This document shows positions 38,996 through 42,604 of a stretch of 64,000 bases of DNA, piece by piece. The notes beneath the pieces are model-generated. The model did not search any database and had not been told where the DNA came from. It worked only from the letters and a program-made list of their open reading frames with translations. Made by a program: the position numbers and the translations under genes. Location: NCBI GenBank assembly GCA_040222015.1, contig JAVJWO010000192.1, positions 33,013 to 97,012 of the forward strand, in the 5' to 3' direction. This DNA comes from Coleofasciculus chthonoplastes F2-STO-03 (lineage in GTDB: Bacteria > Cyanobacteriota > Cyanobacteriia > Cyanobacteriales > Coleofasciculaceae). How positions within the stretch are numbered: position 1 is the stretch's first letter; each line of letters opens with the position of its first letter.

Positions 38996-40150
<1,155 letters not shown>

Positions 40151-40151
40151 T

Positions 40152-40261
40152 AGCTGGGGGAGCTGGGGGAGCAGAGGGAGCAGAGGGAGCAGAGGGAGCA
40201 GAGGGAGCAGAGGGAGCAGAGGGAGCAGAGGGAGCAGAGGGAGCAGAGGGAGCAGAGGGAG
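40152..40261. repeat. 9-bp tandem repeat (GGGAGCAGA)n, about 12 units
   Basis: Seen directly after the vte1 stop codon. Confidence 0.95.
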
Positions 40262-40346
40262 TCAACGAATGACAAATGACAAATGACTAATGACAAATTT
40301 TTTGCTGAAGTTGGGGATCAGGCAAGACTAGAGAGAGAGTATTGGG

Positions 40347-40352
40347 TATAAT
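40347..40352 (+). promoter_or_regulatory. -10 box (TATAAT) of the tRNA-Arg promoter
   Basis: Perfect TATAAT 14 nt upstream of the tRNA 5' end. Confidence 0.55.
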
Positions 40353-40403
40353 GGTTGAATTGAAATGGGGCTGTGGCTCAGATGGATAGAGCAAGCGCCT
40401 CCT

Positions 40404-41271
40404 GAAAAATCGGGCACCGCCAGGGAAACCTGACGAGTGAATGTAGTCAAATTCAAGGAAGCCTAAGTCTGATAACAGATACGGTAATCTTGAGCCAAGC
40501 CGATGCGTTTGAGTTTAAGTCAATCTGGCAAAACTCCACTCTAAAAACGAATCGGAAGGTGCAGAGACTGGTTTAAGGACACCGATAAAAGATGGACTAT
40601 AATGTCTCATCGAAAGTAGAGCAACGCGGTATTCTGGCTGGACTGTTATTAGGTGATGGAAAAAGAAATCAAAACAATTTCTTGATCCAGAATTCATCGA
40701 AGTATGAGGAGTATCTCTTATTTAAGAAAAAGCTTCTCGAACAAATAACGGGTAAATCAGTCAGCATCCGACGCTGGAGTACAAGGAAGGGCTATGAGCA
40801 GATTCGCTTAGAACCAAAGTTGATTCCCCTGACACGGGTTTTAGTTAAGAGGCTTTATCAAGCGGGAACCAAAACAATCACCCGAACGTTCCTAAATTTC
40901 TTAACTCCCCAGGGAATAGCGATTTGGTTTATGGATGATGGGTCTAAGTCCTTCCCGAAAAAAGACGGAAAGGTTCATGCTTTGACGCTTAATCTGAATA
41001 CTTATCTCTCTAAAGAACAAAATGAGATCATTGTTGCTTATTTTGCCGAGGTTTGGGGATTTAAGTGGGGGCTGAGTAAAGCCAAAGGTCTTTATCGTCT
41101 GCGAATGGGAACGAAGGAAGGAAAACGGTTTTTAGCGTTCATTCATCCTTACATCCACGACAGTATGCTCTATAAAGTACAAACGTCCTTAAACAGAACG
41201 GCTACCACCTAAAGGCGATACGCCCAAGGTGAAGGAATAGTCCAGAGAGTGAGGAAACTCACACCAATCTG
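40404..41271 (+). ncRNA. Group I self-splicing intron (IC3-like, 868 nt) inserted after anticodon position 36
   Basis: The 5' exon ends in U with P1 CCUGA/UCGGG. Core elements: P AAATTCAAGGAA, Q AATCTTGAGC, R GTGCAGAGACT, S AAGGAATAGTCC. P3 GTAGTC/GGCTAC, P8 CACCT/AGGTG, terminal G at 41271. Confidence 0.93.
40592..41212 (+). CDS. Intron-encoded LAGLIDADG homing endonuclease (two-motif, LAGLIDADG_2 / I-SceI-like)
   Basis: Motif 1 ILAGLLLGDG and motif 2 GIAIWFMDDG, with C-terminal IHDSMLYK. Located inside the group I intron. Confidence 0.9.
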   Translation: MDYNVSSKVEQRGILAGLLLGDGKRNQNNFLIQNSSKYEEYLLFKKKLLEQITGKSVSIRRWSTRKGYEQIRLEPKLIPLTRVLVKRLYQAGTKTITRTFLNFLTPQGIAIWFMDDGSKSFPKKDGKVHALTLNLNTYLSKEQNEIIVAYFAEVWGFKWGLSKAKGLYRLRMGTKEGKRFLAFIHPYIHDSMLYKVQTSLNRTATT

Positions 41272-41587
41272 AAGCGCTAGGTCGCCGGTTCAAATCCGGC
41301 CAGTCCCGTCAGTAAGAGAATATCAGTAGACCGAAAAGTTTTCGGCTCAGATTGCTCTAGGAGCATGTAGAGACGCGCCATGGCGCGTCTGGAGAGTATC
41401 AAAATCTGTACGGACTAACAGAGGGTGAGAGTGGAAAGTTTTGAGGGGATCGTGGAACTTTTATAGTAATGGATTGCATTGCGGTTAAGCGTACCTTTAG
41501 ACTGGTATCTTGCGATGTAGGGGGGATTTCCAGGTTCCGCCCAAAAGAGCGCTCCTCCTTGATACCACCTGATTCTTCTGTTTATTC

Positions 41588-42202
41588 ATGCTTTTGAGGA
41601 TTTCTGTGCGTCAACGGCGATACTTGTTTTCGCGATCGCGGCGCTCTAAGGTTAGATTACTGTCCTGGTTGATGCCGATTTTGGCGGTTTCGCTATTCTG
41701 TGGCTATAAGCAAATTCAAAGTTATTTGATCCAGCCGGAAGCTATTTTGGTTTTAGGGGGAGAAGAAGAACGAGAACTGTTTGCGGCTGATTTCGCTCAG
41801 CAGCACCCCAATCTCCATATCTGGGTATCGTCCGGTAGTCCATCATGGTACACCCAAAAGGTATTCGCCAAGGCGGGAATTCCCCGCAACCACCTGCATA
41901 TTGATCGCCGTGCTACCGATACGGTAACCAACTTTACGACGTTGGTGGATGAGTTTAAAGCCCAAGGAATCGATGGTGTCTATTTGATTACAGCAGATGA
42001 TCACATGCTACGGGCGCGGGTAATTGGTGAAATTGTGTTTGGCAGTCGCGGAATCATGATTAAACCTGTCCCTGTGTCGTTAGGACGTGATCCAGAACCG
42101 ATTGAGAAATCCCTGCGGGATGGTGCAAGAGCGTTATTGTGGGTAACTACGGGATATACTGGGGCGACTCTGGGTCAGACATCGAATTTTTTGAAAAAAT
42201 AG
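41588..42202 (+). CDS. YdcF/DUF218 family protein
   Basis: ILVLGG, ATDTVTNF and ITADDHMLRA motifs. Confidence 0.85.
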   Translation: MLLRISVRQRRYLFSRSRRSKVRLLSWLMPILAVSLFCGYKQIQSYLIQPEAILVLGGEEERELFAADFAQQHPNLHIWVSSGSPSWYTQKVFAKAGIPRNHLHIDRRATDTVTNFTTLVDEFKAQGIDGVYLITADDHMLRARVIGEIVFGSRGIMIKPVPVSLGRDPEPIEKSLRDGARALLWVTTGYTGATLGQTSNFLKK

Positions 42203-42604
42203 GTGAGGAGGGCGGGTTTTGTTGTTCCGTTAGTGGTGAGGAGCTGAATTGATTCCCTAAACCCGCCCCTACAATTGTGGCTAAACCCAGCAATGTTTCA
42301 GAATTTTTTGAAAAAATAGGTGAGGAGGGCGGGTTTTGTTGTTCCGTTAGTGGTGAGGAGCTGAATTGATTCCCTAAACCCGCCCCTACAATTGTGGCTA
42401 AACCCGCCCCTACGATTGTGGCTAAACCCAGCAATGTTTCAGAATTTTTTGAAAAAATAGGTGAGGAGGGCGGGTTTTGTTGTTCCGTTAGTGGTGAGGA
42501 GCTGAATTGATTCCCTAAACCCGCCCCTACGATTGTGGTTAAACCCGCCCCTACGATTGTGGTTAAACCCGCCCCTACGATTGAGGTTGAACCCAGCAAT
42601 GTTT
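42184..42604. repeat. Triplicated intergenic unit (117/141 bp) with nested 24-bp repeats TAAACCCGCCCCTACGATTGTGG
   Basis: Units start at 42184, 42301 and 42442. Confidence 0.92.

Follow-up and report, generated by a model that had tools for sequence, protein, structure and literature searches.

A predicted group I ribozyme with a LAGLIDADG gene interrupts the only tRNA-Arg(CCU) gene of a Coleofasciculus-like cyanobacterium

The DNA analysed here, hereafter called the window, is a stretch of 64,000 nucleotides from Coleofasciculus chthonoplastes F2-STO-03 (contig JAVJWO010000192.1) in which the only tRNA-Arg(CCU) gene of the genome is encoded in two halves, at positions 40367 to 41308. Taken as one joint claim, our interpretation is that this gene is split by a group I ribozyme that carries a gene for a LAGLIDADG homing endonuclease, and that the family of this protein probably also has a maturase-like function; we regard it as likely as a whole, with splicing, DNA cleavage, homing and the maturase role all predicted from sequence. 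Group I introns that carry homing endonuclease genes are a known kind of element; the novelty lies in the host gene and in the unusual position of the open reading frame (ORF). The source is a Coleofasciculus-like cyanobacterium with an assembly of 7.72 Mb in 219 contigs, rated 99.99% complete. Positions given below are those of the window, and features lie on its forward strand (+) unless stated otherwise.

When the segments 40367-40403 and 41272-41308 are joined by script, ARAGORN recognises the 74-nt product as a tRNA-Arg(cct) with a regular cloverleaf. The 5' exon (40367..40403), also found at 44 other loci, comprises the acceptor 5' strand, the D arm, the anticodon-stem 5' strand, the loop bases C-U and the anticodon CCU, and the 3' exon (41272..41308) comprises the loop bases AA, the anticodon-stem 3' strand, the variable loop, the T arm, the acceptor 3' strand and the discriminator G (helices 1, 3 and 18 of the alignment described below). 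The insert between them (40404-41271) begins after the third anticodon base (U40403), ends with a G (G41271) and is 868 nt long; this layout, including the length and the terminal G, matches base for base what a first-pass annotation of the window had described. Run without its intron mode, ARAGORN finds no tRNA across the whole window. It finds 52 uninterrupted tRNA genes in the genome, among which the arginine anticodons are ACG, CCG and UCU only, CCU being absent. Furthermore, no intron-less copy of tRNA-Arg(CCU) was found in a search of the genome for the 15-base exon junction with one mismatch allowed, and the single match obtained (G000:C41:31958-31972, with one mismatch) is due to chance and is not a tRNA. 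As no intron-less copy was found in a genome rated this complete, tRNA-Arg(CCU) is obtainable only by removal of the insert, which upholds the earlier claim that this tRNA depends on splicing. A genome-wide ARAGORN analysis in intron mode was not used, since it failed to detect the gene of the window and its six 'intron' calls appear to be artefacts or miscalls (the tRNA-Leu intron locus, for example, was called tRNA-Ser). A second group I intron of the genome (locus L001, G000:C217:8535-8797; 84.3 bits, 263 nt by its Rfam match) lies in tRNA-Leu(UAA) and contains no ORF.

Conserved RNA structure gives good support to the interpretation of the insert (40404..41271; site 'Arg.5Ug' of Williams 2020) as a group I ribozyme that is complete and belongs to the small bacterial tRNA type, and self-splicing is predicted. 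At a relaxed threshold, the Rfam model RF00028 (Intron_gpI) matches in two pieces, at 40446-40606 (38.6 bits, E 4.8e-8, model 53-154) and at 41128-41262 (11.4 bits, E 6.9, model 159-251). Homologous loci were taken from two sources, namely 16 cyanobacterial loci from named genomes (L003-L018) and 30 loci, the window's own included, from a 400-genome sample of the phylum; the window and the 44 loci with both exons were aligned (alignment A1, n=45), L017 being left out as it consists of the 3' exon and ORF residues 56-206 only. The aligned introns are ORF-less in 25 cases (204-319 nt) and ORF-bearing in 20, the window's included (832-895 nt). With a structure of 94 pairs drawn from the window's sequence, which favours the paired-cell score and affects the compensatory counts less, 97.4% of 4121 cells form standard pairs, against 29.6-40.8% when the partners are slid by 1-3 columns. 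Changes on both sides occur in 39 of the 94 pairs, compensatory cells number 304 versus 30-72 in the slid versions, and on each of the five measures all 500 shuffled controls stay below the observed value. Support extends to all core helices, P3 and P7 of the P3/P7 pseudoknot are each 100% paired with compensatory changes over the 45 introns, and in the window's own intron the pairs outside the extra hairpin described below are intact in 63 of 63 cases. The split RF00028 matches and this covariation bear out the group I intron that had been proposed in tRNA-Arg(CCU).

In brief, the ribozyme is built as follows. P1 (40401..40414) pairs the exon CCU and the intron GA with UCGGG, with a U40403-G40412 wobble at the 5' splice site that is U-G in 45/45 introns (helix 4, 100% paired), and the P2 hairpin (40415..40439) ends in a GAAA tetraloop (40425-40428) found in 45/45 introns, 6 of its 9 pairs having changed on both sides (helix 5). 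The P3 5' strand (40443..40448) is 100% paired with 41200-41205 and shows A40445-U41203 in the window and nine other introns versus G-C in 35 (helix 6); according to the alignment structure, the P3 3' strand (41200..41205) lies within the ORF, where it forms codons for A-T. The P4-P5-P6 domain (40453..40560) has compensatory pairs in 4/6 of P4, 4/5 of the P5 stem and 5/5 of P6a (helices 7-11); it consists of P4 (40453-58 with 40488-93), of P5 with a CCUAAG...UACGG receptor-like motif, and of P6 (40494-96 with 40558-60, plus 40500-04 with 40551-55), the latter with a lineage-specific extension (40501-40534) that is a window-only block in comparison with the ORF-less introns and is common to the close ORF-bearing relatives. 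The P7 5' strand (40564..40570), with A40565 bulged, is 100% paired with the P7 3' strand (41238..41243), one G-U pair being replaced by C-G in two introns and by A-U in six (helix 12). The P8 hairpin (41206..41231) carries a CCUAAA receptor-like motif, its outer four pairs being 100% paired and its inner pairs compensatory in 4/4 (helices 14-15). The 3' end (41244..41271; helices 16-17) is formed by P9.0 (41244-46 with 41268-70), a P9 hairpin (41249-41262) whose tetraloop is GAAA in 45/45 introns, and the omega G41271, the last intron base being G in 45/45. The CCUAA(G/A)...UA(N)GG-like motifs of P5 and P8 are presumably the tetraloop receptors of an Azoarcus-type IC3 ribozyme, and P7 with its bulged A40565 is taken, by analogy, to be the guanosine-pocket site.

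These data bear on the possibility that the intron does not work at all, the tRNA gene having been inactivated by the insertion of a mobile gene and AGG codons being read only by tRNA-Arg(UCU). The gene for the latter is present in the genome and its tRNA could in principle read AGG by wobble, and the standard tools call neither the tRNA nor the intron. Nevertheless, this explanation is very improbable: both exons are conserved, and their tRNA stems show compensatory changes across the 45 loci (helices 1 and 18); the core of the ribozyme, likewise conserved, shows covariation and is fully paired in the window, and the same arrangement is kept in 49 of 51 other genomes of the window's family, which would not be expected of a dead gene.

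The ORF (40592..41212) encodes 206 codons plus the stop. Alignment of ORF-less with ORF-bearing introns places it in the terminal loop of a 10-bp hairpin, here named 'P7.1', between the P7 5' strand and P3'; the first-pass annotation gave no location for the ORF within the ribozyme. The 5' strand of this hairpin (40571..40580) pairs with a 3' strand (41185..41194) that the alignment structure locates within the last ORF codons; 7 of the 10 pairs are compensatory and the stem is 88.4% paired (helix 13). Among the 25 ORF-less introns, the hairpin is present without the ORF in 17 and absent in 8, where P7 leads straight into P3'; the loops of the ORF-less hairpins are too short and divergent to separate a scar of ORF loss from an original landing site. 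The ORF starts 11 nt past the P7.1 stem and its last ten codons double as the P7.1 3' strand and P3', with the stop and last codons overlapping the ribozyme core; indeed, its stop UAA (41210-41212) is the UAA of the CCUAAA motif of P8. Two variants of this layout were observed among the relatives. In L018 and L040 (Hassallia-type), the conserved ATG of the ORF is ATA, and without a stop the frame continues upstream across the 5' half of the ribozyme, giving open frames of 256 and 249 aa; as P2 contains an ATG, the ORF may start within the ribozyme core in these loci. L064 (G364:C223) is an 895-nt ORF-bearing intron in which the P5 loop is enlarged by 24 nt and the ORF contains 39 extra nt close to its C-terminus, and its catalytic positions are K/K.

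The encoded protein belongs to the LAGLIDADG_2 family of Pfam (PF03161; 127.8 bits against a cut-off of 25, E 5.2e-37), residues 12-180 covering profile positions 1-168 of 168, and it is the only PF03161 gene product of the genome. An AlphaFold2 model based on a 43-sequence alignment has a mean predicted local distance difference test score (pLDDT) of 93.4 and a predicted template modelling score of 0.89, and it describes a single, pseudo-dimeric chain of two alpha-beta-beta-alpha-beta-beta-alpha halves. Only the part formed by residues 201-206 is given a pLDDT below 50, which fits a C-terminal tail set by the RNA rather than by the protein. A Foldseek comparison with PDB ranks I-WcaI first (6x1j; template modelling score (TM) 0.77, 24% identity) and then I-SceI (1r7m; TM 0.73-0.74, 21-22%), with a probability of 1.00, and also matches the bI3 maturase (2ab5, TM 0.59) and the bifunctional I-AniI (1p8k); a sequence search of PDB chains returned I-WcaI and I-SceI again (E 5e-6 and 1.2e-5). 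Both LAGLIDADG helices end in an aspartate, D22 in motif 1 (LAGLLLGDG) and D116 in motif 2 (AIWFMDDG), which we take, from the PDB sequence alignment, to be the metal-binding catalytic residues, counterparts of D44 and D145 of I-SceI. An intact two-motif LAGLIDADG ORF of 206 aa, as initially reported, is thereby confirmed, with PF03161 matched end to end and both aspartates in place. Taken together, these features give the copy in the window the appearance of a competent monomeric endonuclease.

Relatives of this protein form 180 clusters at E 0.001 or better among 318 candidates, of which 120 are listed (57-97% identical). Among the matches listed, the closest named genomes for the locus and the protein are those of Coleofasciculus, and the named relatives are nearly all cyanobacterial, including Coleofasciculus PCC 7420 (95%), Symploca, Lyngbya, Oscillatoria acuminata, Laspinema, Desmonostoc, Phormidium and Spirulina. 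For several of them the NCBI annotation reads 'LAGLIDADG endonuclease' or 'DNA endonuclease'. The catalytic state was established for 121 proteins, namely the window's and the 120 listed cluster representatives. Aspartate or glutamate (D/E) is present at both catalytic positions in 44/121, in motif 2 only in 13/121, in motif 1 only in 10/121 and at neither in 54/121, where the commonest pairs are Q/R (14), V/K (10), A/K (7), K/K (4) and W/K (3); the Q/R type includes proteins of Oscillatoria acuminata and Laspinema (P0049, P0043). The length is kept nonetheless, with precisely 206 aa in 48/121. A quick maximum-likelihood tree, built with both catalytic columns masked, requires 21 changes for the four catalytic states, and at least 15 changes between 'both acids' and 'not both'; one 55-member clade on long branches contains 50 members with neither acid, and the window's 20-row starred clade contains 9 with both acids, 5 with motif 2 only, 3 with motif 1 only and 3 with neither. 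In the Coleofasciculus clade both aspartates are kept in 8/8 DNA loci. The ratio of nonsynonymous to synonymous substitution rates (dN/dS) was estimated by the Nei-Gojobori method over the first 194 codons, the part overlapping the ribozyme being left out. It is 0.07-0.25 in all 14 pairs with an estimable dS, two further pairs being saturated; it is 0.07, 0.13 and 0.25 for pairs inside the window's clade and remains low for pairs lacking both acids (L015-L016 0.18, L041-L047 0.24, L015-L041 0.16). Since decay would give values near 1 together with frameshifts, these low ratios and the intact lengths indicate that the family is selected for something that does not need DNA cleavage. From these comparisons, the protein family probably has an additional role without DNA cleavage, most plausibly as a maturase for the folding of its own intron; such a cleavage-independent role is proposed from the fixation of the intron in the genus, described below, and from the purifying selection on acid-less relatives.

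The same evidence can be taken one step further, to a protein kept mainly as a maturase for its own intron, with a DNA cleavage that is vestigial or was lost for causes beyond the two catalytic residues. This is possible, although we consider it unlikely. It draws on the full-length, acid-less relatives in deep clades, on their low dN/dS, on the absence of an empty site to invade in a genus where intron and ORF are fixed in 8/8 other species, and on the fact that LAGLIDADG maturases and bifunctional enzymes are established, the bI3 maturase and I-AniI being among the fold matches; part of a review (Hausner 2014, PMC3984707) also cites a LAGLIDADG protein of a bacterial 23S intron with maturase-like activity. 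The window's protein and its whole Coleofasciculus clade, however, keep both aspartates, the ORF-less introns of 33/51 family genomes manage without a protein, and the ribozyme cores of ORF-bearing introns show no decay.

The distribution of the intron and of its ORF was determined in 400 other genomes of the phylum and in 51 other genomes of the window's family, an intron being counted in the phylum sample if the match starts at query base 1 and reaches at least base 100. On this basis the intron (the 5' exon plus at least 63 nt of intron) is present in 50/400 phylum genomes, only 5/400 contain close relatives of the ORF (58-71% identity, E 7.6e-77 or better), and nine further genomes contain ORF relatives of 26-31% identity, as longer frames in other places. 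Within the family, the intron is present in 49/51 genomes and the ORF part in 16/51 (15 full length and one broken by a contig end), while 33/51 match the intron ends only; one of these 33 (G405) is unpublished, and without it the counts are 48/50 for the intron and 16/50 for the ORF. The tRNA-Arg intron was not seen in two of the 51, G422 (a core-like match only) and G002 (no match). G002, rated 100% complete, has no match to the 942-nt locus, exons included, in a family whose other 50 genomes match, and its tRNA-Arg(CCU) gene is either lost or divergent, or unassembled. In the genus, the full 942-nt locus is present in all eight other species, at 93-97% identity. On the ribozyme tree, ORF presence needs 4 changes, of which the starred branches force only 1, and the tree is compatible with gain as well as loss. 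The first-pass annotation had held that tRNA-Arg(CCU) introns are sporadic and had treated an ORF-bearing one as an exception. Neither view holds in cyanobacteria, given the intron's frequency in phylum and family, the ORF-bearing form in 16/51 family genomes and in 8/8 other species of the genus, and at least 180 related protein clusters; the survey of trnR-CCU alleles that it had proposed does not support the rarity and shows the locus to be a member of a large, mostly unannotated family.

With regard to homing, ten genomes of the phylum sample that match the 5' exon only were inspected, and all ten carry an uninterrupted tRNA-Arg(CCU) gene; in 8/10 of these, a 30-base stretch centred on the insertion region has 0-1 mismatch with the joined exons of the window. 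L112 and L117 are examples of such natural intron-less alleles. A homing target is thus present in nature, though not inside the genus. Because both aspartates are present and targets exist elsewhere, cleavage of the target and mobility are plausible, as judged from sequence, for the window's copy. Ahead of one intron-less gene (L111, G092:C1:2026880-2027120), its first ~58 bases are duplicated in tandem along with 16 upstream bases. A 30-protein clade, mostly with both acids, includes the sole match with a non-cyanobacterial name among those listed, a protein of a Pyrinomonadaceae metagenome-assembled genome (P0097), whose identity to the protein of the window is 59%. When metagenomes were scanned with P0097, 26 loci were obtained, two of which were examined. 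In the closest (L083, positions 871-1852 of a metagenome contig, 77% identical to P0097), an 859-nt group I intron separates U34 from A35 of a tRNA-Leu(UAA) gene. The ORF of this intron, a homologue of the window's LAGLIDADG gene, lies in the hairpin directly after P7 and begins with MDYNVSSK as in the window; its motif 1 reads LLGYGG, the first catalytic acid being lost. The intron around the other homologue (L084, positions 480-1300 of a metagenome contig, 51% identical to P0097) is also of group I, scoring 47.9 bits with RF00028, and its flanks are unreadable as tRNA. The presence of a homologous ORF in a tRNA-Leu(UAA) intron points to a transfer between related tRNA introns, either of the gene by itself or of the gene together with its hairpin.

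Such movement is also what would be expected of a purely selfish, active homing element without benefit to the host, the ORF persisting by re-invasion across species and the dead copies being stages of decay. The mixed catalytic states of the window's 20-row clade, as predicted by recurrent inactivation, the patchy occurrence of the ORF between genera of one family, and the intron-less targets of identical sequence in other cyanobacteria all agree with it. Decay, however, predicts frameshifts, stops and a dN/dS near 1, and conserved lengths with strong constraint were found even between dead copies; in addition, large clades lacking both acids diversified while remaining intact. We therefore find a purely selfish element doubtful.

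Several observations weigh against the interpretation preferred here, that of an endonuclease-encoding group I intron whose protein family probably also serves as a maturase. Regarding the endonuclease, 77/121 proteins lack one or both catalytic acids, which makes this activity dispensable in the family; P0005, 87% identical to the window's protein, has lost both. The presence of the ORF-bearing intron in all other species of the genus leaves no empty target nearby and makes any homing invisible in the present distribution. No convincing ribosome-binding site was seen in the sequence before the AUG of the ORF. Regarding the maturase part, core pairing amounts to 99.4% in introns whose protein has both acids (n=10), 97.1% with one acid (n=5), 94.9% with none (n=5) and 97.6% in ORF-less introns (n=25), figures that are biased toward the window's clade by the structure drawn from the window; ORF-bearing cores are as intact as ORF-less ones and the RNA shows no sign of dependence on the protein. 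A strict dependence is further contradicted by the ORF-less introns being the majority. Finally, Rfam at its gathering score detects nothing in the whole window, the intron falling below the 50-bit cut-off of RF00028. This low score is explained by the insert of ~600 nt, the ORF, which splits the model; 6/6 ORF-less relatives tested against RF00028 score above the cut-off of 50 (54.5-83.5 bits). The group I search that had been proposed in the first-pass annotation gave a relaxed two-part match flanking the ORF, below the gathering score.

A broader reading of the family's comparative data is more speculative, and we think it rather unlikely: the proteins of cyanobacterial tRNA-Arg(CCU) introns would be, or would repeatedly become, maturases, the window's copy would be bifunctional, cutting tRNA-Arg(CCU) genes that lack the intron as well as assisting the folding of its ribozyme, and the family would represent a series from endonuclease to maturase that moved between tRNA-Leu(UAA) and tRNA-Arg(CCU) introns.

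Introns in tRNA-Arg(CCU) were reportedly first described by Reinhold-Hurek and Shub in 1992 in Agrobacterium tumefaciens, and Paquin et al. are said to have surveyed them in alpha-proteobacteria in 1999. The classical bacterial tRNA-Arg(CCU) introns are short and are not known to contain an ORF. The window's intron resembles the Arg.5Ug class in the tRNA concerned, in its insertion after the third anticodon base, in the U at -1 and the G at omega and in its small IC3-type core, and differs from it in its 206-codon LAGLIDADG gene, extended P6 and cyanobacterial host. The pre-tRNA-Ile(CAU) intron of Azoarcus, also of the IC3 type, is inserted after the anticodon and has GAAA tetraloops in P2 and P9, receptors in P8 and P5 and a bulged A in P7. 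Compared by these features rather than by sequence, it shares with the window's intron the set of helices, the tetraloop and receptor motifs, the P7 bulge and the insertion point, whereas it has neither the hairpin between P7 and P3' nor an ORF. I-Ssp6803I, encoded by the tRNA-fMet intron of Synechocystis PCC 6803, has a PD-(D/E)xK fold. This intron is likewise a cyanobacterial group I intron in an anticodon loop, and the endonuclease that it encodes is directed against the tRNA gene, as is predicted for the window's protein, but the tRNA, the insertion point and the nuclease superfamily are different, the window's being LAGLIDADG. The host of I-SceI is a mitochondrial rRNA intron. With I-SceI and I-WcaI, the window's protein shares PF03161, the two-domain single-chain fold (TM 0.74-0.77), an acid at the end of each helix and, with I-SceI, the motif 2 WFMDDG; it differs in sequence (21-24% identity), in its length (206 aa versus 224-235) and in residing in an intron of a bacterial tRNA gene. 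By its combination of constrained ORFs with lost catalytic residues, the window's family resembles maturases such as the bI3 maturase and I-AniI, from which it differs in that the window's copy keeps both aspartates and that the fold match to bI3 is lower (TM 0.59).

In the literature, Arg.5Ug is one of four classical split-tRNA types, and introns of split tRNA genes reach 922 nt, those above ~400 bp possibly holding protein genes (Williams 2020, bioRxiv 10.1101/2020.01.27.920355). Lengths of this order were thus already catalogued, which weakens the expectation of the earlier annotation that such introns are small and ORF-less. Of other publications, the portion consulted of PMC5733544 names only tRNA-Leu and tRNA-fMet among cyanobacterial tRNA introns, that of a 2025 database paper on introns and homing endonuclease genes (PMC11835236) mentions tRNA for chloroplasts only, and that of Hausner et al. 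(2014, PMC3984707), where crystal structures of the Azoarcus pre-tRNA-Ile(CAU) intron are cited, has no mention of LAGLIDADG in a bacterial tRNA-Arg intron. Literature searches, for which subscription journals were mostly beyond reach, turned up no paper on this endonuclease and no report of either a LAGLIDADG gene within an intron of a bacterial tRNA or an ORF-bearing cyanobacterial tRNA-Arg(CCU) intron.

Around the locus, a TATAAT hexamer at 40347..40352, 15 nt upstream of the tRNA 5' end, is a possible -10 box of a tRNA promoter; a consensus promoter scan did not call it as a promoter, an adequate -35 element being absent. The sole site that the scan called, inside the intron (40576-40603) and downstream of the ORF start, was dismissed, as chance alone would give 1.5 sites. 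The tRNA is immediately preceded by two tandem arrays, namely 11.6 copies of the 9-nt unit GGGAGCAGA (40158-40261), which overlap the 3' end region of a 366-aa ORF (39050-40150) and its downstream spacer, followed by 4.4 copies of the 7-nt unit AATGACA (40268-40298). Downstream, a 150-aa ORF on the reverse strand (42147-42599, -) consists of repeated blocks (TIVGAGL...GNQFSSSPLTEQQNPPSSPIFSKNSETLLGLA) and, from its sequence, probably reflects repetitive DNA rather than a gene. Part of the stretch is contained in 14 sequencing runs labelled as RNA, three of which hold 0.55-0.67 of the sampled words.

In summary, the following course of events is proposed. A precursor would be transcribed from a promoter just upstream of the tRNA, and its intron would fold from P1 to P9, with the two GAAA tetraloops docking into the receptor-like motifs of P8 and P5. 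A guanosine would attack after U40403, and G41271 would then direct the ligation of the exons into the mature tRNA. The protein would most likely still cut a tRNA-Arg(CCU) gene that lacks the intron, either precisely at ...GCGCCTCCT/AAGCGC... or close to it, repair of the break would copy the intron into the cut gene (homing), and the protein family would probably also help its own intron to fold, as a maturase. If active, the protein would be a compact I-SceI-type enzyme of 206 aa whose natural target lies in a tRNA gene of universal conservation, and if the series from endonuclease to maturase were true, its members would rank as the first proteins that act as splicing cofactors for an intron of a bacterial tRNA. 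As standard tools for tRNAs and RNA families overlook the gene, the genomes of the genus and 49/51 genomes of the family would be reported without a tRNA-Arg(CCU). Moreover, the occurrence of ORF-less introns, of active-looking ones and of dead but conserved ones at one site in related genomes makes it testable how a homing gene outlives the fixation of its intron.

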